Shown: positions 3,960-19,655, numbered from the stretch's first letter. The stretch is 64,000 bases of DNA from Escherichia coli (GCF_002854065.1 NZ_CP024147.1), one strand, 5' to 3'. The notes: generated from the letters alone by a model not told the origin. Numbers and translations: made by a program.

Positions 3960-4766
3960 ATGAAATTTGTCTCTTTTAATATCAACGGCCTGCGCGCCAG
4001 ACCCCACCAGCTTGAAGCCATCGTCGAAAAGCACCAACCGGATGTGATTGGCCTGCAGGAGACAAAAGTTCATGACGATATGTTTCCGCTCGAAGAGGTG
4101 GCGAAGCTCGGCTACAACGTGTTTTATCACGGGCAGAAAGGCCATTATGGCGTGGCGCTGCTGACCAAAGAGACGCCGATTGCCGTGCGTCGCGGCTTTC
4201 CCGGTGACGACGAAGAGGCGCAGCGGCGGATTATTATGGCGGAAATCCCCTCACCGCTGGGTAATGTCACCGTGATCAACGGTTACTTCCCGCAGGGTGA
4301 AAGCCGCGACCATCCGATAAAATTCCCGGCAAAAGCGCAGTTTTATCAGAACCTGCAAAACTACCTGGAAACCGAACTCAAGCGTGAAAATCCGGTGCTG
4401 ATTATGGGCGATATGAATATCAGTCCTGGCGACCTGGATATTGGCATTGGCGAAGAGAACCGTAAGCGCTGGCTGCGTACCGGAAAATGTTCTTTCCTTC
4501 CGGAGGAACGCGAATGGATGGAGAGACTGATGAGCTGGGGATTGGTTGATACCTTCCGCCATGCGAATCCCCAAACAGCAGATCGTTTCTCATGGTTTGA
4601 TTACCGCTCAAAAGGTTTTGACGATAACCGTGGTCTGCGCATCGACCTGCTGCTCGCCAGCCAACCGCTGGCAGAATGTTGCGTAGAAACCGGCATCGAC
4701 TATGAAATCCGCAGCATGGAAAAACCGTCCGATCACGCCCCCGTCTGGGCGACCTTCCGCCGCTAA
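3960..4766 (+). CDS. xthA: exodeoxyribonuclease III (268 aa)
   Basis: [36 protein letters not shown]... within ORF 3948..4766; start taken at the internal ATG giving 268 aa. Confidence 0.9.
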
Positions 4767-4932
4767 TTTAGCAGCTCTCCTGGCTCAAACTGGGTCAGGA
4801 GAATTAACCTTGAGAAAAATCAACAAACTGTCAGTAATGATTTGTTGCCTGCCGTCCTTTGTTATACCGTCACTGCGTTTTTAGTTGTCTGACCACTTCT
4901 CTATTATCAAGTTTGATATAGGAAACACCACG

Positions 4933-5643
4933 ATGAACGCTGAGCGTAAATTTCTGTTTGCCTGTCTTATTTTTGCGCTGGTCATTTACGCTATCCACGC
5001 TTTCGGTTTATTCGATCTGCTCACCGATTTACCCCACTTACAGACACTCATCCGCCAGAGCGGATTGTTCGGTTATAGCCTCTATATTCTGTTATTCATC
5101 ATTGCCACCCTCTTTCTGTTACCAGGAAGCATACTGGTGATCGCGGGAGGAATAGTTTTTGGCCCGCTCTTAGGGACACTACTCTCATTAATTGCCGCAA
5201 CGCTGGCCTCCTCGTGCTCATTCCTGCTGGCGCGCTGGCTGGGACGTGATTTACTGCTGAAATACGTTGGCCATAGCCATACCTTCCAGGCCATTGAAAA
5301 AGGCATTGCGCGTAATGGTATTGATTTTCTTATTCTGACCCGCTTAATCCCGTTGTTTCCTTACAATATTCAAAATTACGCTTACGGATTAACCACAATC
5401 GCCTTCTGGCCTTATACCCTTATTTCGGCACTCACGACCCTGCCCGGTATTGTTATTTATACCGTGATGGCAAGCGATCTCGCCAATGAAGGCATTACGC
5501 TGCGCTTTATTTTACAACTCTGTCTGGCGGGCCTGGCGCTGTTTATTCTCGTCCAGCTCGCCAAACTCTACGCCCGACACAAACATGTGGATCTGTCTGC
5601 TTCGCGCCGCAACCCACTTACTCACCCAAAAAATGAAGGATAG
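4933..5643 (+). CDS. ydjX: DedA/TVP38-family inner membrane protein (236 aa)
   Basis: ORF 4885..5643; start at MNAERKFLFACLIF gives 236 aa; multiple hydrophobic helices. Confidence 0.8.
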   Translation: MNAERKFLFACLIFALVIYAIHAFGLFDLLTDLPHLQTLIRQSGLFGYSLYILLFIIATLFLLPGSILVIAGGIVFGPLLGTLLSLIAATLASSCSFLLARWLGRDLLLKYVGHSHTFQAIEKGIARNGIDFLILTRLIPLFPYNIQNYAYGLTTIAFWPYTLISALTTLPGIVIYTVMASDLANEGITLRFILQLCLAGLALFILVQLAKLYARHKHVDLSASRRNPLTHPKNEG

Positions 5644-5647
5644 AACG

Positions 5648-6325
5648 ATGTTGCAACATTATTCAGTGTCATGGAAAAAAGGACTGGCTGCACTCTGCTT
5701 ACTGGCTGTTGCTGGGCTTAGCGGCTGCGATCAAAAAGAGAATGCGGCGGCAAAAGTGGAATACGACGGACTTTCGAACAGCCAACCGCTGCGCGTCGAT
5801 GCCAATAACCATACGGTAACCATGCTGGTGCAAATTAATGGTCGTTTCCTCACCGACGACACTCGTCACGGTATTGTGTTTAAAGATGGCTCCAACGGAC
5901 ATAAATCGCTGTTTATGGGTTATGCGACCCCGAAAGCATTTTATGAAGCCCTGAAAGAGGCAGGTGGTACACCGGGCGAAAACATGACGATGGATAATAA
6001 AGAAACGACTCATGTCACGGGCAGCAAACTGGATATTTCGGTCAACTGGCAAGGGGCGGCAAAAACGTATTCCTTCGATGAAGTGATTGTTGACAGTAAT
6101 GGCAAGAAACTGGACATGCGCTTTGGCGGTAATTTAACGGCAGCAGAAGAGAAGAAAACGGGTTGCCTGGTATGTCTGGATAGCTGCCCAGTCGGTATCG
6201 TCAGCAATGCGACATACACTTATGGTGCGGTCGAAAAACGCAGCGAAGTGAAATTCAAAGGTAATGCGTCGGTTCTCCCGGCCGATAACACGCTGGCAAC
6301 GGTTACCTTTAAAATCGCCGAATAA
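5648..6325 (+). CDS. ydjY: lipoprotein with Cys-rich motif (225 aa)
   Basis: ORF 5486..6325; start at MLQHYSVSWKKGLAALCLLAVAGLSGC (signal peptide plus lipobox LSGC); CLVCLDSCP motif near C-terminus. Confidence 0.75.
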   Translation: MLQHYSVSWKKGLAALCLLAVAGLSGCDQKENAAAKVEYDGLSNSQPLRVDANNHTVTMLVQINGRFLTDDTRHGIVFKDGSNGHKSLFMGYATPKAFYEALKEAGGTPGENMTMDNKETTHVTGSKLDISVNWQGAAKTYSFDEVIVDSNGKKLDMRFGGNLTAAEEKKTGCLVCLDSCPVGIVSNATYTYGAVEKRSEVKFKGNASVLPADNTLATVTFKIAE

Positions 6326-6340
6326 CAACCTTGATTAAGG

Positions 6341-7048
6341 ATGATGAAGATGCAATCGCGTAAAATCTGGTACTACCGTGCCACCATCATCATCCTGTTG
6401 TTCGCTACGCTGCTTGCATGGGCGCTGCTTCCGGGCGTCCATGATTTTATCAATCACAGCGTTGCGGCGTTTGCCGCTGTGGACCAACAGGGTATTGAAC
6501 GTTTTATTCAGTCTTACGGCACGCAGGCGGCTGTCGTCTCATTCTTTTTGATGATTTTGCAGGCCATTGCCGCGCCGCTACCCGCATTCTTGATTACTTT
6601 TGCTAACGCATCACTTTTTGGCGCATTCTGGGGCGGCGTGCTGTCGTGGACCAGTTCTATGGCTGGCGCGGCGCTATGCTTCTTTATCGCCAGAATAATG
6701 GGCCGTGAAGTGGTGGAAAAGTTAACAGGCAAAACGGTACTCGACAGCATGGACGGCTTTTTTACCCGCTACGGCAAACACACCATTCTGGTATGTCGGT
6801 TATTGCCTTTTGTCCCTTTCGATCCAATCAGCTATGCTGCCGGTTTGACTTCAATACGTTTTCGCCAGTTTTTTATCGCCACCGGGCTCGGTCAGTTACC
6901 GGCGACCATTGTCTATTCCTGGGCGGGTAGCATGTTAACGGGTGGTGCATTCTGGTTTGTCACCGGACTGTTTATTCTGTTTGCCCTGACCGTGGTGATT
7001 TTTATGGCGAAAAAAGTATGGCTTGAACGCCAGAAGAGGAATGCCTGA
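6341..7048 (+). CDS. ydjZ: DedA/TVP38-family inner membrane protein (235 aa)
   Basis: ORF track 6341..7048; hydrophobic, paralogous in pattern to ydjX. Confidence 0.8.
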   Translation: MMKMQSRKIWYYRATIIILLFATLLAWALLPGVHDFINHSVAAFAAVDQQGIERFIQSYGTQAAVVSFFLMILQAIAAPLPAFLITFANASLFGAFWGGVLSWTSSMAGAALCFFIARIMGREVVEKLTGKTVLDSMDGFFTRYGKHTILVCRLLPFVPFDPISYAAGLTSIRFRQFFIATGLGQLPATIVYSWAGSMLTGGAFWFVTGLFILFALTVVIFMAKKVWLERQKRNA

Positions 7049-7596
7049 TGGGGTTACCACCGCTTAGCAAAATTCCTTTAATTTTACGCCCGCAGGCGTG
7101 GCTGCATCGTCGCCATTACGGTGAGGTGCTAAGTCCAATTCGCTGGTGGGGGCGAATTCCGTTTATCTTTTATCTGGTGTCGATGTTTGTCGGTTGGCTG
7201 GAGCGCAAACGCTCACCGCTCGATCCAGTGGTGCGATCGCTTGTCAGCGCGCGTATTGCGCAAATGTGCTTGTGTGAGTTTTGCGTGGATATCACCAGTA
7301 TGAAAGTCGCCGAGCGTACCGGCAGCACCGATAAACTGCTGGCAGTGGCTGACTGGCGGCAAAGCCCGCTCTTCAGCGACGAAGAGCGGCTGGCGCTGGA
7401 GTACGCCGAAGCCGCCAGCGTTACGCCGCCAACTGTGGATGATGCCCTGCGCACCCGACTGGCTACACATTTTGACGCTCAGGCACTCACCGAGCTTACG
7501 GCTTTGATCGGCTTACAAAACCTGTCGGCTCGTTTTAATTCTGCCATGGACATTCCTGCCCAGGGGCTGTGCCGACTTCCTGAAAAACGTTCTTAA
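7048..7596 (+). CDS. ynjA: AhpD-like / carboxymuconolactone decarboxylase family protein (182 aa)
   Basis: ORF track 7048..7596; ATG overlaps ydjZ stop (TGATG). Confidence 0.75.
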   Translation: MGLPPLSKIPLILRPQAWLHRRHYGEVLSPIRWWGRIPFIFYLVSMFVGWLERKRSPLDPVVRSLVSARIAQMCLCEFCVDITSMKVAERTGSTDKLLAVADWRQSPLFSDEERLALEYAEAASVTPPTVDDALRTRLATHFDAQALTELTALIGLQNLSARFNSAMDIPAQGLCRLPEKRS

Positions 7597-7602
7597 GGAG
7601 AG

Positions 7603-8772
7603 ATGATGCGCCATTATGTGTGGTTGCTGGGAATGTTATCGCTGTTTTCTTTGACAACGCATGCCAGCGACTGGCAGGAAATTAAAAACGAAGCCAAAGG
7701 GGAAACCGTCTGGTTTAACGCCTGGGGCGGCGACACCGCGATTAATCGCTATCTCGACTGGGTTAGCGGTGAGATGAAAACGCATTACGATATAAACCTG
7801 AAGATTGTTCGTCTGGCGGATGCCGCAGACGCGGTGAAGCGCATTCAGACCGAAGCTGCTGCCGGACGTAAAACGGGCGGCTCGGTGGATCTGCTCTGGG
7901 TGAACGGCGAAAACTTCCGCACCTTAAAAGAGGCCAAGTTATTACAAACGGGCTGGGCGGAGACTCTGCCCAACTGGCGCTATGTCGACACACAGCTGCC
8001 GGTGCAGGAAGATTTTTCAGTGCCTACAGAAGGGGCTGAATCGCCCTGGGGGGGCGCACAACTGACATTTATCGCCCGCCGCGATGTTACGCCACAGCCA
8101 CCACAAACGCCGCAAGCCTTACTGGAGTTTGCTAAAGCCAATCCCGGCACGGTTACCTATCCGCGCCCACCGGACTTTACCGGCACGGCGTTTCTTGAAC
8201 AGTTGCTGATTATGCTGACGCCCGATCCCGCCGCATTAAAAGAAGCGCCGGACGATGCAACTTTCGCCCGTGTCACTGCTCCCTTGTGGCAATATCTTGA
8301 TGCGCTGCATCCGTATTTGTGGCGCGAAGGAAAGGATTTCCCGCCTTCGCCCGCGCGGATGGATGCTCTGCTGAAAGCCGGAACATTGCGCCTGTCGCTG
8401 ACCTTTAACCCCGCGCATGCGCAGCAAAAAATCGCCAGCGGCGATTTGCCTGCAAGCAGTTACAGTTTTGGCTTTCGTGAGGGGATGATTGGCAACGTGC
8501 ATTTCGTCACCATTCCTGCCAACGCGAATGCCAGTGCTGCGGCGAAGGTAGTTGCCAATTTCTTGCTCTCACCCGATGCGCAATTGCGTAAAGCAGATCC
8601 CGCTGTCTGGGGCGATCCTTCTGTTCTCGATCCGCAAAAACTGCCTGATGGGCAGCGCGAAACATTGCAATCAAGAATGCCGCAAGATCTGCCGCCGGTA
8701 CTGGCTGAACCGCACGCAGGTTGGGTAAATGCGCTGGAACAAGAATGGCTACACCGTTACGGTACGCATTAA
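7603..8772 (+). CDS. ynjB: ABC transporter periplasmic substrate-binding protein (389 aa)
   Basis: ORF track 7603..8772; AAGGAG RBS; N-terminal signal peptide MMRHYVWLLGMLSLFSLTTHA. Confidence 0.8.
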   Translation: MMRHYVWLLGMLSLFSLTTHASDWQEIKNEAKGETVWFNAWGGDTAINRYLDWVSGEMKTHYDINLKIVRLADAADAVKRIQTEAAAGRKTGGSVDLLWVNGENFRTLKEAKLLQTGWAETLPNWRYVDTQLPVQEDFSVPTEGAESPWGGAQLTFIARRDVTPQPPQTPQALLEFAKANPGTVTYPRPPDFTGTAFLEQLLIMLTPDPAALKEAPDDATFARVTAPLWQYLDALHPYLWREGKDFPPSPARMDALLKAGTLRLSLTFNPAHAQQKIASGDLPASSYSFGFREGMIGNVHFVTIPANANASAAAKVVANFLLSPDAQLRKADPAVWGDPSVLDPQKLPDGQRETLQSRMPQDLPPVLAEPHAGWVNALEQEWLHRYGTH

Positions 8773-10280
8773 TCTTTTTGCTGTGGGCGATGGTGGCGGT
8801 GATTTATGCACCGCTGATCCCGGCAGCTCTCACGCTGATATCGCCTGCTTTGTCGTTGACACACTGGCAGGCGTTATTTGCCGATCCACAGTTACCGCAG
8901 GCATTACTGGCAACGCTGGTGTCGACAACCATCGCGGCGGTCGGGGCGTTGTTGATTGCCCTGCTGGTGATTGTGGCGCTGTGGCCTGGGCCGAAATGGC
9001 AGCGTATGTGCACCCGTCTGCCGTGGCTGCTCGCCATTCCCCATGTGGCTTTTGCCACCAGCGCCCTTCTGCTCTTTGCTGACGGAGGGCTGCTTTATGA
9101 CTATTTCCCGTATTTCACTCCGCCAATGGACAAATTGGGTATTGGGCTGGGCTTCACGCTGGCGGTGAAAGAAAGCGCATTTCTGCTGTGGATCTTAGCA
9201 GCAGTATTGAGCGAAAAACGGCTGTTGCAGCAGGTCATTGTGCTGGATTCGCTGGGCTACAGCCGCTGGCAATGCCTGAACTGGCTGCTGTTGCCCTCTG
9301 TCGCGCCTGCGCTGGCAATGGCGATGCTGGCGATTGTCGCCTGGTCGCTGTCGGTCGTGGATGTGGCGATTATTCTTGGGCCAGGTAATCCACCGACGCT
9401 GGCAGTAATTAGCTGGCAGTGGTTAACTCAGGGCGACGCCGATCAACAAACGAAAGGCGCACTCGCCAGCCTGCTGCTGATGTTGTTACTCGCCGCCTAC
9501 GTTTTGCTAGGCTATCTGCTATGGTGTACCTGGCGGCGTACTATTCCCCGCGTAGATGGCGTTCGTAAGCCTGCCACGCCTTTATTGCCAGGCATTACGC
9601 TGGCGAGTTTTTTACCCTTGACCGGTGTGCTGTGTGTGGTTCTGCTGGCGATCCTCGCGGATCAGTCGACGATCAATAGTGAAGCGCTCATCAACAGCCT
9701 GACAATGGGGCTGGTGGCGACATTCATCGCTTTGCTCCTGTTACTGCTGTGGCTGGAATGGGGGCCACAGCGTCGCCAGTTGTGGCTATGGTTGCCCATT
9801 TTATTACCCGCTCTGCCACTGGTGGCGGGCCAGTACACGCTGGCGCTATGGCTGAACCTGGATAGGAGCTGGACGGCGGTGGTCTGGGGGCATCTGCTGT
9901 GGGTAATTCCGTGGATGCTGTTTATCCTGCAACCCGCCTGGCAGCGCATTGATTCACGGTTAATTTTGATTGCACAAACACTGGGCTGGTCGCGGGCCAA
10001 AATCTTCTTTTACGTGAAATGCCCACTCATGTTGCGCCCTACGCTGATTGCCTTCGCGGTGGGATTTTCAGTCAGTATTGCGCAGTATATGCCGACGCTG
10101 TGGCTGGGCGCGGGGCGTTTTCCGACGCTCACCACTGAGGCGGTGGCATTAAGCAGCGGCGGCAGCAACGGTATTCTCGCCGCCCAGGCTTTATGGCAAC
10201 TGCTATTACCGCTTATTATTTTTGCCCTGACCGCGTTAGTCGCAAAATGGGTAGGTTATGTCAGACAAGGACTCCGCTAA
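8745..10280 (+). CDS. ynjC: ABC transporter permease, two-domain (511 aa)
   Basis: ORF 8721..10280; start placed at MATPLRYALIFLL; very hydrophobic; overlaps ynjB 3' end by 28 nt. Confidence 0.75.
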   Translation: MATPLRYALIFLLWAMVAVIYAPLIPAALTLISPALSLTHWQALFADPQLPQALLATLVSTTIAAVGALLIALLVIVALWPGPKWQRMCTRLPWLLAIPHVAFATSALLLFADGGLLYDYFPYFTPPMDKLGIGLGFTLAVKESAFLLWILAAVLSEKRLLQQVIVLDSLGYSRWQCLNWLLLPSVAPALAMAMLAIVAWSLSVVDVAIILGPGNPPTLAVISWQWLTQGDADQQTKGALASLLLMLLLAAYVLLGYLLWCTWRRTIPRVDGVRKPATPLLPGITLASFLPLTGVLCVVLLAILADQSTINSEALINSLTMGLVATFIALLLLLLWLEWGPQRRQLWLWLPILLPALPLVAGQYTLALWLNLDRSWTAVVWGHLLWVIPWMLFILQPAWQRIDSRLILIAQTLGWSRAKIFFYVKCPLMLRPTLIAFAVGFSVSIAQYMPTLWLGAGRFPTLTTEAVALSSGGSNGILAAQALWQLLLPLIIFALTALVAKWVGYVRQGLR

Positions 10281-10933
10281 TGCTCTGCGTGAAAAATGTT
10301 TCGCTACGTTTACCAGAAAGTTGCTTGCTGACAAACGTTAACTTTACGGTGGATAAAGGTGACATTGTCACGTTAATGGGGCCGTCTGGCTGTGGAAAAT
10401 CCACTCTGTTTTCATGGATGATTGGTGCACTGGCTGGACAGTTTTCTTGTACAGGTGAGCTATGGCTCAATGAGCAACGGATTGACATGCTACCCACCGC
10501 ACAGCGTCAGATTGGCATTCTTTTTCAGGATGCACTGTTATTTGACCAGTTCAGTGTCGGGCAAAATTTACTGCTGGCGCTACCGGCGACACTTAAGGGG
10601 AATGCCCGACGTAATGCCGTGAATGATGCACTTGAGCGTTCAGGCCTTGACGGAGCTTTCCATCAGGATCCTGCCACTTTGTCTGGCGGTCAGCGAGCGC
10701 GCGTTGCTCTGCTTCGCGCCCTTCTCGCTCAGCCAAAAGCGTTGCTACTGGATGAGCCATTCAGCCGTCTTGATGTGGCTCTGCGTGATAATTTTCGCCA
10801 GTGGGTGTTCAGCGAAGTTCGCGAACTGGCGATCCCCGTCGTTCAGGTAACGCACGATCTCCAGGATGTTCCTGCTGATAGTTCTGTTCTGGATATGGCG
10901 CAGTGGTCAGAAAATTACAACAAACTGCAATAA
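10280..10933 (+). CDS. ynjD: ABC transporter ATP-binding protein (217 aa)
   Basis: Walker A GPSGCGKST, signature LSGGQRARV, Walker B LLLDEP; ATG overlaps ynjC TAA (TAATG). Confidence 0.8.
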   Translation: MLCVKNVSLRLPESCLLTNVNFTVDKGDIVTLMGPSGCGKSTLFSWMIGALAGQFSCTGELWLNEQRIDMLPTAQRQIGILFQDALLFDQFSVGQNLLLALPATLKGNARRNAVNDALERSGLDGAFHQDPATLSGGQRARVALLRALLAQPKALLLDEPFSRLDVALRDNFRQWVFSEVRELAIPVVQVTHDLQDVPADSSVLDMAQWSENYNKLQ

Positions 10934-10999
10934 CGCAAAGTTTTTCTCAATGCGTCAGTTCAGAATGGCGCACTCAAAACTACAATGTCGGGATTTTCG

Positions 11000-12307
11000 A
11001 TGAAACGTGTTTCTCAAATGACCGCGCTGGCAATGGCTTTAGGGCTGGCTTGCGCTTCTTCGTGGGCCGCTGAACTGGCGAAGCCTCTTACACTTGACCA
11101 GCTTCAACAACAAAATGGCAAAGCGATAGATACTCGCCCCAGCGCGTTTTATAACGGCTGGCCACAAACCTTAAATGGCCCTTCTGGTCATGAACCTGCC
11201 GCCTTAAACCTCTCTGCTAGCTGGCTTGACAAAATGAGCACCGAACAGCTCAACGCGTGGATCAAGCAACATAACCTGAGAGCCGATGCCCCGGTGGCGC
11301 TGTACGGTAATGGCAAAGATGTCGACGCCGTCAAAACGCGACTGCAAAAAGCAGGTTTTACGCATATCTCCATTCTGAGTGACGCGCTAAGCGAACCTTC
11401 CCGTCTGCAAAAACTGCCGCATTTTGAGCAGCTGGTTTATCCGCAATGGCTGCATGACCTGCAACAAGGTAAAGAGGTTACGGCGAAACCTGCCGGTGAC
11501 TGGAAAGTCATTGAAGCGGCCTGGGGCACTCCTAAGCTTTACCTTATCAGCCATATTCCCGGCGCTGACTACATCGATACCAACGAAGTGGAAAGCGAAC
11601 CGCTGTGGAACAAAGTTTCTGATGAACAACTAAAAGCGATGCTGGCAAAACACGGCATTCGCCATGACACCACGGTCATTCTGTACGGGCGTGACGTATA
11701 CGCTGCAGCGCGTGTGGCGCAGATTATGCTGTATGCAGGCGTGAAAGATGTGCGCCTGCTGGATGGCGGCTGGCAAACCTGGTCCGACGCGGGTCTGCCC
11801 GTTGAGCGCGGTACGCCACCGAAAGTGAAAGCGGAACCGGATTTCGGCGTGAAGATCCCGGCGCAACCGCAGTTGATGCTCGATATGGAACAGGCCCGTG
11901 GACTGCTGCATCGCCAGGATGCATCGCTGGTGAGCATTCGTTCGTGGCCAGAATTTATCGGTACGACCAGCGGTTACAGCTATATTAAACCAAAAGGTGA
12001 AATAGCCGGAGCACGTTGGGGACACGCTGGTAGCGACTCGACGCATATGGAAGATTTCCATAACCCGGATGGCACCATGCGTAGCGCCGATGATATTACC
12101 GCTATGTGGAAAGCATGGAATATCAAACCAGATCAGCAAGTTTCATTCTACTGCGGCACCGGCTGGCGCGCGTCCGAAACCTTTATGTACGCACGAGCAA
12201 TGGGCTGGAATAACGTCTCCGTTTACGACGGCGGCTGGTACGAATGGAGCAGCGATCCAAAAAATCCGGTAGCAACCGGTGAACGCGGCCCGGACAGCAG
12301 CAAATAA
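11000..12307 (+). CDS. ynjE: periplasmic sulfurtransferase with rhodanese domains (435 aa)
   Basis: ORF 10985..12307; signal peptide; rhodanese-type active-site Cys (FYCGTGWRAS). Confidence 0.8.
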   Translation: MKRVSQMTALAMALGLACASSWAAELAKPLTLDQLQQQNGKAIDTRPSAFYNGWPQTLNGPSGHEPAALNLSASWLDKMSTEQLNAWIKQHNLRADAPVALYGNGKDVDAVKTRLQKAGFTHISILSDALSEPSRLQKLPHFEQLVYPQWLHDLQQGKEVTAKPAGDWKVIEAAWGTPKLYLISHIPGADYIDTNEVESEPLWNKVSDEQLKAMLAKHGIRHDTTVILYGRDVYAAARVAQIMLYAGVKDVRLLDGGWQTWSDAGLPVERGTPPKVKAEPDFGVKIPAQPQLMLDMEQARGLLHRQDASLVSIRSWPEFIGTTSGYSYIKPKGEIAGARWGHAGSDSTHMEDFHNPDGTMRSADDITAMWKAWNIKPDQQVSFYCGTGWRASETFMYARAMGWNNVSVYDGGWYEWSSDPKNPVATGERGPDSSK

Positions 12308-12315
12308 CATTGCAA

Positions 12316-12942
12316 TTACTGACGCTGGAGCGACTTCAGCGTCAGATACCCACTCCACACCCGCGTAAAGGTCGTCATCCAGCACAACGCACCGAAGATC
12401 CACGCAAACCACGCAAACCATGCAGGGAATAAACATCCCAGCACAAACAGTAAGATCGTTTCTGTGCCTTCGGTTAATCCCCCCAGATAATAAAACGATT
12501 TATGCGCATAACCGGGATTATCAATCTGATGTTTCGCCGCCAGCGCAGCAAAAGCGAGAAAACTGCTACCCGTGCCGATAAACGCAAATAGCAGCCAGCC
12601 GCCTGCCAGGGCGTTTTGCTGCGGTGCGGCGAGGATAAACCCAAAAGGCACCAGCGCGTAAAAAAGAAAATCGAGAGAAATATCAAGAAAGCCGCCCGCG
12701 TCGGTAAGCCCTCTGCGCCGCGCCAGCGCACCGTCCAGACCATCAAGCAGCCTGTTCAACAAAATGACGACTAGCGCCGCCAGATACCAGCCCAGCGCCA
12801 GAAACGGCAGAGCCAGCACGCCGATGGCAAATCCCACTAATGTTAAACCATCTGGCGTAATGCCCGGTTTATCAAGAACCCGCACGCACTGATGCAACAA
12901 CGGTTTAATCCGGGGATGAAGATGGCGGTCTAGCACAGGCAC
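12316..12942 (-). CDS. ynjF: CDP-alcohol phosphatidyltransferase family membrane protein (208 aa)
   Basis: ORF track 12316..12942; D-G-x2-A-R...G motif (DGLDGALARRRG). Confidence 0.75.
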   Translation of the reverse strand: MPVLDRHLHPRIKPLLHQCVRVLDKPGITPDGLTLVGFAIGVLALPFLALGWYLAALVVILLNRLLDGLDGALARRRGLTDAGGFLDISLDFLFYALVPFGFILAAPQQNALAGGWLLFAFIGTGSSFLAFAALAAKHQIDNPGYAHKSFYYLGGLTEGTETILLFVLGCLFPAWFAWFAWIFGALCWMTTFTRVWSGYLTLKSLQRQ

Positions 12943-13022
12943 TCCTTAAATATAAAGCCTTTCTGATTGAGCAACAGTGCGGATATTATGGCATTTTTCG
13001 CTTATCTGCCCGTGTGTAATTT

Positions 13023-13430
13023 ATGAAAATGATTGAAGTTGTTGCCGCCATCATTGAACGTGATGGCAAAATTTTACTCGCGCAACGCCCCGCCCAGAGC
13101 GATCAGGCGGGATTATGGGAGTTTGCCGGTGGTAAAGTCGAGCTGGATGAAAGCCAGCAGCAGGCGCTGGTGCGTGAGTTAAACGAAGAATTGGGCATCG
13201 AAGCAACTGTGGGTGAGTATGTTGCCAGCCATCAGCGAGAAGTTTCGGGCCGGATTATCCATCTTCATGCCTGGCACGTACCCGACTTCCACGGGACGTT
13301 ACAGGCACATGAACATCAGGCGCTGGTCTGGTGCTCACCTGAAGAGGCGCTGCAATATCCGCTGGCCCCTGCTGACATTCCATTATTAGAGGCGTTTATG
13401 GCTTTACGCGCCGCCAGACCAGCGGATTAG
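13023..13430 (+). CDS. nudG: Nudix hydrolase, CTP/dCTP pyrophosphohydrolase (135 aa)
   Basis: Nudix box GGKVELDESQQQALVRELNEELGI. Confidence 0.85.
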   Translation: MKMIEVVAAIIERDGKILLAQRPAQSDQAGLWEFAGGKVELDESQQQALVRELNEELGIEATVGEYVASHQREVSGRIIHLHAWHVPDFHGTLQAHEHQALVWCSPEEALQYPLAPADIPLLEAFMALRAARPAD

Positions 13431-15352: not shown

Positions 15353-15363
15353 ATTTCAGGCGT

Positions 15364-16402
15364 TTATGAGTATTTAACGGATGATGCTCCCCAGGGAACA
15401 TTTCTTATGGGCCAACGGCATTTCTTACTGTAGTGCTCCCAAAACTGCTTGTCGTAACGATAACACGCTTCAAGTTCAGCATCCGTTAACTTTCTGCGAT
15501 AGCAGCAGATATGCCAGTAAAGAAATCCCATTAGACTATTTTTTTGATAATCTTCTTCGCTTTCGAACAACTCGTGCGCCTTTCGAGAAGCAAGCATTAT
15601 ATAATGCCAGGCCAGTTCTTCTTCAATTGTCCCGTTTTGAAAAGCTGTGCTTGATATCGAGATCATCCATGATAATTCCGCCGCCCATATTAGCTTCGCC
15701 GAGGATTTACCGGAGCTATGATTAGCGCAATCAGAGATATAGTCTGAGGGAAAACAGCAAATTTATTCAACAAGGCGATAACCTGCTCTGGGGCTTCCTC
15801 CATGTTTGCTTTAAAGGTATTGGCTCCATGGTCGCCAGAAAGAAAATGCTCCATTAAGGCACAATAACTTTCGCTATCTTCGATACCCCATTGATCCTCT
15901 AAAGACTCGCGTCTTTTACTTATGATATCGATCGAGTCAAAAGGAAGCACATGATATTGGAAGGTATCTTTGCCAGGTTCAGGCTTTCGCGGCCAGAACT
16001 CCAGCGTTTCAGACCATTGCTTATGATAGAATCGATAAGGTGCGATCAATTGTAGCGCCTGTAATTTCTCGATACTGAGCGGCTCAATACCTTTAGCCTG
16101 ATAATAATGCAGCTGTTCTTTTTTTGCTTTAAAACCGGCCCGAACAATAAGCCCCATCATAATTAATAGATAAAGAAAAGAGCATCCCGCGGTAATCAGG
16201 CCTCTTTCATTCAAACCTTTGGATGTTATCGCTGCGAATACAAACATTACAGCGACAACACATGTTAAATACCCCCCCACTTACAAAGCAGCATGGCCTT
16301 ATTTTCTTTAATCATCCGTTCAAAATTACTATTAAATATTTCCCAGCCATTAAAAGAATACTTCTCGCTCCCAGGATGGTTTTGTAATAAAACTTTTTTC
16401 AT
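15364..16402 (-). pseudogene. ynjI: ynjI-like inner membrane protein gene split across three reading frames (apparent pseudogene)
   Basis: Three abutting ORFs in three frames (16402..16265, 16280..15690, 15666..15364); span from MKKVLLQNHPGSEKY start to final stop is 1039 nt, two short of a 346-codon frame; first break at a C7 homopolymer (16272-16278). Confidence 0.55.
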
Positions 16403-18495: not shown

Positions 18496-19539
18496 TTAAC
18501 GGATCTCAACCATGGCACGACCGCCGCGCGCTGGCACCAGTTCGCCAATCGCCGTCAGTTCAATGCCAAACTCGGCGGCTGTAGCTTTAACCTCATTTTC
18601 TGCTTCCGGCATGACCGCCAGCAGCAAACCGCCAGAAGTTTGCGGATCGCACAGCAAATCGCGCACTTCACGCGGCATTTCACCCATCAGATGACCGTAG
18701 CTGGCAAAGTTACGTTCGGTGCCGCCAGGCACTGCACCCAACTTAATGTACTCTTCAACCCCCGGCAATTTCGGGATCGCGTCATAGTCAACGCGCGCCT
18801 GCACACCTGCGCCCTGACACATTTCGCTCAAATGCCCCAGCAGGCCAAAGCCCGTTACGTCGGTCATCGCTTTTACGCCTTCAATGTTGGCAAAGGACGC
18901 GCCTGCGATGTTCATCCGGCACATCACTTCCGTCGCCAGTCCCTGATGTTCTGGTTTCAGCAGTGATTTTTTCTCAGCCGTGGTAAGAACGCCGATCCCC
19001 AGCGGTTTCGTCAGGAACAGTTTACATCCGGCTTGTGCGGTACTGTTTTTCTTCACCCGCTCGGTCGGTACGATCCCCGTCACCGCCAAACCAAAAATCG
19101 GCTCCGGCGCATCGATGGAGTGACCGCCAGCCAGCGCAATACCCGCCTGACGACATGCATAGCGTCCACCTTCAGTCACTTCGCGGGCAATTTCCGGGGA
19201 AAGTTTGTTAATCGGCCAGCCGAGGATCGCAATCGCCATAATCGGTTTGCCCCCCATCGCGAAGATATCGCTGATGGCGTTAGTCGCCGCAATGCGGCCA
19301 AAATCGAAAGGATTATCAACGATCGGCATAAAGAAGTCGGTGGTACTGATAACGCTGGTGCCATTGCCCAGATCGTACACCGCCGCATCGTCGCGGGTTT
19401 CATTACCCACAAGCAAATTCGGATCAACAAACTTCGCCTGCTCACTGTGCAGGATGGTTTCCAACACTTTTGGGGAAATTTTACAGCCGCAACCAGCTCC
19501 GTGGCTGTATTGGGTCAAACGAATCGAGTTCTCGCTCAT
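18496..19539 (-). CDS. selD: selenide, water dikinase (selenophosphate synthetase), 347 aa
   Basis: [23 protein letters not shown]... (Cys at the catalytic position). Confidence 0.9.
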
Positions 19540-19655
19540 GGACATCTCCTGTCAATGCAATCCGGGTATGGTAACCCTCATTCCGTGAAGTGATAAGTGA
19601 GAGTGTCTGAATTCCTGCGCCTTTGCTCACAATCCAGACAGTTTCGCGACAATTA

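Follow-up and report, generated by a model that had tools for sequence, protein, structure and literature searches.

What might a bacterium do with an operon in which two VTT/DedA-family membrane proteins flank a lipoprotein with a conserved cysteine site, and which continues into an AhpD-like protein, an ATP-binding cassette (ABC) importer and a rhodanese? The question is raised by ydjXYZ-ynjABCD-ynjE, at positions 4933-12307 of a 64,000-nucleotide (nt) stretch of Escherichia coli DNA (NZ_CP024147.1; hereafter the window, from whose first letter all coordinates are counted). This array is already known and annotated and is not a new locus. We tentatively propose that ydjXYZ-ynjABCD, together with ynjE and the adjacent ynjF, is an FNR-induced anaerobic envelope module that handles a reduced chalcogen by means of extracytoplasmic thiol proteins and a VTT-transported lipid, a reading that we consider plausible but still short of probable. 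The genes concerned are as follows.

4933-5643, plus strand: ydjX, VTT/DedA-family membrane protein of 236 amino acids (aa) (PF09335, RefSeq)
5648-6325, plus strand: ydjY, exported lipoprotein with a conserved His74/Cys173/Cys176/Cys180 site
6341-7048, plus strand: ydjZ, VTT/DedA-family membrane protein of 235 aa (PF09335), the best conserved partner of ydjY
7048-7596, plus strand: ynjA, CMD/AhpD-like protein with a C-x-C-x2-C cluster and a hydrophobic N-terminal segment (PF02627)
7606-8772, plus strand: ynjB, periplasmic substrate-binding protein (SBP_bac_8, NF008633)
8745-10280, plus strand: ynjC, fused double ABC permease of 511 aa (PF00528)
10280-10933, plus strand: ynjD, ABC ATPase (PF00005)
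11000-12307, plus strand: ynjE, periplasmic three-domain rhodanese with catalytic Cys385 (PF00581)
12316-12936, minus strand: ynjF, membrane protein annotated to the cytidine diphosphate (CDP)-alcohol phosphatidyltransferase family, outside the span first delimited

The eight genes from ydjX to ynjE are intact open reading frames (ORFs) on the plus strand, and the same genes stand in the RefSeq annotation of the 100% identical E. coli strain CUWW06, which confirms the gene content and the span 4933-12307 proposed in the initial annotation. Its family calls (two VTT/DedA proteins, an AhpD-like protein, an ABC importer and a rhodanese) are likewise upheld by domain matches.

To place the array in a wider context, we compared 80 species-level YdjY loci from 44 lineages, including Escherichia, Citrobacter, many anaerobic Firmicutes, Campylobacterota and Desulfobacterota. 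The genome scan was seeded with an 18-sequence alignment, a 73-sequence alignment being too diverse as a seed. The products of the E. coli genes recur around YdjY as follows.

VTT protein: beside YdjY in 71 of 80 loci
YnjB/YnjC-like proteins: near YdjY in 17 of 80 loci, from 10 lineages
YnjE-like rhodanese: near YdjY in 12 of 80 loci, from 6 lineages
YnjF-like CDP-alcohol phosphatidyltransferase: near YdjY in 11 of 80 loci, from 7 lineages

Of the nine loci that lack a VTT gene, about four are truncated contigs. With its orthologs in Firmicutes and Campylobacter, YdjZ shares 54-60% identity, and YdjX is 30-39% identical to the product of the second VTT gene in the clusters of the same groups; the two E. 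coli proteins share just 27% identity, but for each a separate ortholog exists in other bacteria, which makes them an ancient pair. The YdjY domain also occurs fused to rhodanese (in both domain orders), to VTT and to a fatty-acid hydroxylase. Several neighbours of YdjY elsewhere are missing from the E. coli locus, namely TIGR04282/TIGR04283 transferases (above their curated cutoffs), a radical S-adenosylmethionine (SAM) enzyme, a nucleoside hydrolase, a flippase-like LPG_synthase_TM protein, an HdrD-like iron-sulfur (Fe-S)/CCG protein (often fused to VTT), CcdA-/ResA-type thiol transporters and C_GCAxxG_C_C proteins. These comparisons show a rare module that spans phyla, and they suggest that the E. 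coli locus may be a cut-down version of a widespread membrane system tied to the handling of selenium or sulfur and to an unusual lipid.

Enteric relatives show which parts can be spared. Klebsiella pneumoniae has the same locus minus ydjY, Citrobacter freundii has ynjA relocated so that it overlaps ynjF, and Edwardsiella hoshinae has, at another chromosomal site, nothing but YnjA and YnjF (with overlapping genes), one VTT gene and a YnjE-like rhodanese. VTT, YnjA, YnjF and YnjE therefore make up the enteric core, with YnjBCD and YdjY as accessories. Since VTT, YnjA, YnjF and YnjE recur together in these variants, ynjF belongs to the system, and the span first delimited ends one gene short of the conserved module. 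In some Firmicutes, YnjF homologs also lie within tight VTT-CCG-YnjF-YnjBCD operons. A Firmicute homolog of YnjF scores 57.3 bits against PF01066 (cutoff 22), a domain also carried by the genes at the Klebsiella, Citrobacter and Edwardsiella loci. E. coli YnjF reaches 63.6 bits against archaetidylinositol-phosphate synthase (cutoff 180), and its similarity to phosphatidylinositol-phosphate synthases is also below the NCBIfam cutoff.

The choice of chalcogen comes from the company that YdjY keeps. SelD lies within 10 kb of YdjY in six of the 80 loci (324.6 bits, cutoff 125), and long-form YedF is nearby in eight (217.8 bits, cutoff 110), in both cases across two phyla, in Desulfobacterota and Facklamia. 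The YdjY/VTT clusters of Bacillus benzoevorans and Facklamia lactis further contain a PrdB/GrdB-like gene (L060:13115-13876 and L078:3693-4420) whose conserved motif PG-U-YICHQSVGLIQ (U-x-x-C) is interrupted by an in-frame TGA, and the conserved sequence goes on past the TGA. Because the TGA falls within a conserved motif, a selenoprotein is predicted, and the gene is probably an unannotated or truncated selenoprotein gene. In E. coli itself, selD (selenide, water dikinase; 618.8 bits) is found at 18499-19545 on the minus strand, 6.2 kb past ynjE, with ynjF, nudG, ynjH, gdhA, ynjI and topB in between. In addition, Sastry et al. grouped the ydjXYZ-ynjABCD operon with yedEF, yjiLM and ynjE in an uncharacterized iModulon, for which a role in molybdenum or selenium usage was proposed. 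Selenium is favoured because of this SelD/YedF/selenoprotein context and the co-expression with yedEF. YedE/YedF (YeeE/YeeD-type) chalcogen transport with TusA-like partners is a close known parallel, as YedF and SelD stand beside YdjY clusters elsewhere and both systems would use thiol-based carriers of sulfur or selenium. The E. coli locus differs in having no YedE-type (Sulf_transp) protein; in the membrane it has VTT/DedA proteins, an ABC permease and a CDP-alcohol transferase. No DedA, rhodanese or YedF is present in Haft's SAO selenoprotein ABC system, which is a different system.

Turning to the proteins, YdjY, YnjB and YnjE all carry export signals. YdjY has a lipobox, L-S-G-C27, and a cysteine site, C173-x2-C176-x3-C180-P181, in agreement with its initial description as a lipoprotein with a C-x2-C-x3-C-P motif. 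C173, C176, C180 and H74 are each at least 90% conserved in an alignment of 73 diverse homologs. With 146.1 bits against a cutoff of 50, the protein belongs to the YdjY-domain family (NF040466/PF27149), which is marked by a TGCxxCLDSCP motif. The UniProt-style label of a 4Fe-4S ferredoxin, which would call for the full CxxCxxCxxxCP motif, a ferredoxin fold and cofactor-compatible twin-arginine (Tat) export, does not fit, and a sequence search of the PDB with YdjY returned only chance-level matches to ferredoxin motifs. Its fold is confidently predicted, and solved structures offer no informative match to the model. In some Desulfobacterota, ydjY is present as two copies in tandem (L047:9110-10555), and one protein, P0122, holds two YdjY domains; such doubling suggests that the domain may act as a dimer or pair. 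YnjE scores 118.7 bits against PF00581 over three rhodanese stretches. Its catalytic Cys385 lies in a six-residue loop of the CX4R type, CGTGWR, and does not vary among seven orthologs that represent three phyla. The literature places the protein in the periplasm.

Both integral membrane proteins of the ydj genes belong to the VTT/DedA superfamily, YdjX with 93.1 bits and YdjZ with 87.4 bits against PF09335 (cutoff 33.9), and share the VTT/DedA domain with lipid transporters such as the flippase UptA and the scramblases TMEM41B and VMP1. Members of the superfamily have been proposed as lipid transporters of narrow specificity that act on distinct lipids. An assignment as the undecaprenyl-phosphate (UndP) transporter UptA itself does not fit, since YdjX and YdjZ, which fall in the TVP38 branch, score only 27.5 and 37.8 bits against an equivalog cutoff of 250. 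Published complementation points the same way: of the eight paralogs in E. coli, DedA alone complemented UndP transport at a high level (resistance to MX2401), and YdjX and YdjZ did not rescue the cell-division defect of YqjA/YghB. YnjA belongs to the CMD/AhpD family (36.7 bits against PF02627, cutoff 23), and its C-x-C-x2-C cluster is invariant across four genera; against the specific equivalogs tried (YciW-related and peroxidase-related), every score stayed under the cutoff.

The anaerobic part of the proposal comes from regulation. Myers et al. reported ydjXYZ-ynjABCD as an operon directly activated by FNR from a site at -60.5, and listed ynjE apart from it, likewise activated by FNR, with the site at -41.5. 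The sequence offers the following counterparts.

4810-4823, plus strand: FNR-box-like site TTGAGAAAAATCAA in the xthA-ydjX spacer, with one mismatch to TTGATnnnnATCAA
4863-4868, plus strand: candidate -10 hexamer of ydjX, TATACC, preceded by TGT, as read from the sequence
10959-10986, plus strand: sigma-70-like promoter TTCAGA-16-TACAAT upstream of ynjE

The site TTGAGAAAAATCAA has the highest conservation of any block in the xthA-ydjX spacer when Escherichia, Citrobacter and Klebsiella are compared, and its centre, at 4816.5, agrees with the published FNR site at -60.5. The candidate -10 hexamer was placed accordingly, such that transcription would start at about 4877 and set the FNR box at -60.5. 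A promoter scan of 4600-13100 returned a single sigma-70-like match, at 10959-10986 directly before ynjE, which is consistent with the published ynjE promoter.

The initial annotation also held that tight packing makes the whole array one transcription unit. The packing itself is as described: the gaps are 4 nt between ydjX and ydjY, 15 nt between ydjY and ydjZ, and 9 nt between ynjA and ynjB, the 1-nt overlaps of ydjZ/ynjA and ynjC/ynjD read TGATG and TAATG, respectively, and ynjB and ynjC overlap by 28 nt. The last figure rests on the annotated ynjC ATG at 8745, and an in-frame TTG at 8721 would lengthen the overlap. For ydjX to ynjD, where all gaps are 15 nt or less or the genes overlap, the single unit is borne out, also by the published operon; ynjE is not simply its last gene, having a promoter of its own. 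The internal signals that would divide the array are thus present only in part, as a promoter-like site and a published FNR promoter precede ynjE, and no terminator-like fold is found in the ynjD-ynjE spacer. Taken together, the 66-nt gap between ynjD and ynjE, the promoter-like site, the separate FNR promoter and the missing terminator fold argue for read-through plus an internal promoter, so that ynjE is probably expressed both ways. No convincing FNR box was found in the window sequence at -41.5 before ynjE, where the conserved element is a different palindrome. This near-palindrome, TGCAATAACGCA (window 10926-10937), straddles the ynjD stop codon and is better conserved than any other element in the ynjD-ynjE spacer; its counterpart in Citrobacter sp. 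R56 and C. freundii is the perfect palindrome TGCGTTAACGCA, and that in Klebsiella has one mismatch. It does not match the FNR consensus and is a candidate binding site for a regulator.

Based on these observations, the proposed module might work as follows. YnjE, through Cys385, and YdjY, through its three cysteines and histidine, would carry a reduced chalcogen, bound to them as a persulfide or selenosulfide, on the outer face of the inner membrane, the chalcogen being most likely selenium and possibly sulfane sulfur. The VTT pair YdjX/YdjZ would move a dedicated lipid across the membrane, with YnjF as its likely maker and YnjA as the thiol-redox partner of YnjF, and YnjBCD would serve as an accessory importer of a soluble precursor. 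A bolder version is that the locus is the first dedicated bacterial selenium acquisition system, or that it makes or salvages a phospholipid bearing selenium or a metalloid, which YnjF would build, YdjX/YdjZ would flip, and YdjY and YnjE would service outside. We regard this version as unlikely. As of 2024, no organism was known to have a dedicated selenium transporter.

Several points weigh against the proposed selenium-linked module. The loci with SelD or YedF near YdjY are few, and their lineages are not independent. Proximity to selD is lost at the relocated Edwardsiella module, and the nearness of selD in E. coli may therefore be coincidental synteny. Proteins of the YedE family have been shown to transport zero-valent sulfur, so that the co-expression with yedEF argues equally for sulfur. 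Family names containing "(seleno)protein" often mean just that some members contain selenocysteine. The Cys/His site of YdjY could instead bind a metal or metalloid, and only their family membership speaks for a lipid role of YnjF and the VTT pair. In the literature, no experiment ties any gene of the locus to selenium, and a search for selenite, tellurite or arsenite phenotypes of the locus genes found nothing.

The alternative that survives best, which we nevertheless judge unlikely, is a system specific for sulfur, in which thiosulfate or another compound with sulfane sulfur would enter through YnjB and YnjCD, to be processed by YnjE, YdjY and YnjA for cysteine, persulfide or molybdenum cofactor (Moco) sulfur. 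Rhodaneses and TusA/YedF-type proteins are classic sulfur carriers, and the sulfur transport by YedE-family proteins fits here as well. For YnjE, RefSeq gives the name thiosulfate sulfurtransferase, and the FNR and iModulon papers give the annotation molybdopterin synthase sulfurtransferase. The biochemistry of YnjE is less favourable, as the purified enzyme had no apparent thiosulfate:glutathione activity, poor activity with thiosulfate or 3-mercaptopyruvate and a small effect in complementation, and its physiological substrate was called unclear. SelD and the selenoprotein gene in related clusters indicate selenium, and a sulfur-specific system leaves YnjF and the VTT pair without a role.

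The importer, too, speaks against thiosulfate. YnjBCD is a type I ABC importer by its domains (PF13416, PF00528 and PF00005, all above cutoff; 103.5 bits for YnjD against PF00005) and by its contiguous or overlapping genes. It thereby shares with the sulfate/thiosulfate importer CysPUWA/Sbp the type I ABC architecture with a periplasmic binding protein; it differs in that YnjC is a fused double permease of the ThiP/FbpB/PhnU type, whose counterpart in Firmicute clusters is two separate permease genes. YnjB scores 561 bits against NF008633. Its AlphaFold2 model (predicted local distance difference test score 86.3) has as nearest folds PotD, FbpA, TbpA, PhnS and AfuA, at 12-17% identity, and no annotated Sbp/CysP sulfate/thiosulfate-binding protein is among its top 50 fold matches; a sequence search of the PDB gave no match. 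With YnjC at 24.1 bits against CysT (cutoff 415) and YnjD at 110.4 bits against CysA (cutoff 502), YnjBCD does not classify as a CysPUWA-Sbp transporter. Thiosulfate, which the initial annotation had offered as an example substrate, is thus not supported by the predicted PotD/FbpA/PhnS class of YnjB, by the YnjC score or by the YnjE assays. Nor is there support for the locus being basically an uptake system, as had also been supposed, since YnjBCD is missing from most related loci (present in 17 of 80) and from the minimal module of Edwardsiella. What remains of the earlier sulfur or redox reading is the thiol-redox theme of sulfur and selenium, seen in Cys385 of YnjE, the cysteine cluster of YnjA, the YdjY-rhodanese fusions and the YedF/SelD neighbours.

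Somewhat less likely again, yet a serious alternative, is a lipid pathway for an organo-metalloid or organo-chalcogen compound that, by analogy, would resemble arsenosugar-phospholipid synthesis. In other bacteria, radical SAM enzymes, nucleoside hydrolases and TIGR04282/TIGR04283 transferases would build a modified ribosyl head group. In E. coli, YnjF would attach the head group to CDP-diacylglycerol, YdjX/YdjZ would flip the product, and its servicing outside the membrane would fall to YdjY and YnjE; as E. coli lacks the head-group enzymes, it would have to import the head group via YnjBCD. The non-enteric clusters lend this some weight. Matches to TIGR04282 and TIGR04283 above the curated cutoffs occur in 16 loci, a radical SAM gene in nine and a nucleoside hydrolase in six, the last directly flanking YnjBCD in Clostridium and Catonella, and one Campylobacter operon has these genes interspersed among ydjY, ydjZ and ydjX. 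Clusters also contain YnjF-like transferases and flippase-like LPG_synthase_TM proteins, the fatty-acid hydroxylase-YdjY fusion exists, and the fold neighbours of the YnjB model include binding proteins for sugar phosphates and dinucleotides. Three-cysteine sites, such as that of YdjY, are typical As(III) ligands.

The NCBI 'arsenosugar biosynthesis' neighbourhoods (ArsS, TIGR04282/TIGR04283) do resemble the non-enteric YdjY/VTT clusters in their TIGR04282/TIGR04283 members, radical SAM enzyme and nucleoside hydrolase. The radical SAM protein, however, is not ArsS by score (77.7 bits, cutoff 300), no ArsM-like methyltransferase was noticed in the clusters, and SelD, YedF and the selenoprotein gene indicate selenium over arsenic. 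Moreover, the 'arsenosugar' family names rest on gene association and not on experiments with these proteins, every biosynthetic gene of the set is missing from E. coli, and no such lipid has been reported in E. coli. One further observation bears on arsenic versus selenium: in Finegoldia (L004:1-2713), arsenic-resistance genes of the ArsA-like, Acr3/SBF-like and ArsC (LMWPc) types lie 7-10 kb upstream of ydjY, which may be chance.

Least likely of all, and in our view improbable, is that the locus has no unified function and merely brings together unrelated membrane proteins, a Moco rhodanese and an ordinary nutrient importer of the thiamine, polyamine or phosphonate type, since, for all that YnjB is a 'putative thiamine transport system' protein in some sources, that the best equivalog similarities of YnjD are to PhnT2, ThiQ and PotA, that BaeR overexpression modestly induced ynjA (1.6-fold) and ynjB (1.4-fold), published under an ynjABCD operon, and that importer and YdjY are each dispensable in some relatives, YdjY, the VTT pair, YnjBCD, YnjE and YnjF recur in distant phyla, often as one operon, YdjY is fused to rhodanese and to VTT, all equivalog scores are far under their cutoffs, and the operon and ynjE are both FNR-controlled and belong to the same iModulon. 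The thiamine transporter ThiBPQ in particular was rejected for YnjBCD, as YnjD reaches 133 bits against ThiQ (cutoff 245), TbpA is only a distant fold neighbour of YnjB (about 15% identity), and no riboswitch, including those for thiamine pyrophosphate, or other Rfam element is present in 4500-13200.

Within the species, the stretch is core DNA, being found at 95-100% identity in 5424 of 5426 complete E. coli genomes, and the GC content of the locus shows no sign of recent transfer. Identity to 4933-12307 is 95-99% in 5399 of the 5424 genomes and at least 99% in only four, which places the window in an E. coli lineage that has been sampled sparsely. The locus is the same as ydjXYZ-ynjABCD plus ynjE of E. 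coli K-12, with matching order, junctions and flanks (astC and xthA upstream; ynjF, nudG and gdhA downstream). Structurally nothing differs from K-12, whose published records give no function and do not count ynjF in the unit. Downstream, ynjI (window about 15360-16400, minus strand) is a frameshifted pseudogene in the 100%-matching reference strain, and only a 196-aa ORF (15690-16280) is left in the window. The 3' ends of the convergent nudG and ynjH overlap by about 35 nt (window 13396-13430), and the stop codons of the likewise convergent ynjE and ynjF are 8 nt apart; both pairs are RNA-seq 'excludon' candidates in the literature.

In summary, the comparison defines YdjY as a small protein family and points, tentatively, to an anaerobic, selenium-linked envelope module around it. 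If the selenium link fails, the locus stays an ordinary uncharacterized anaerobic operon. If the proposal is true, it would give a specific job to two of the eight DedA-family proteins of E. coli and to the orphan lipid enzyme YnjF. The locus is a concrete candidate for a part of bacterial selenium biology that has long been missing, and it can be put to genetic tests in E. coli K-12.

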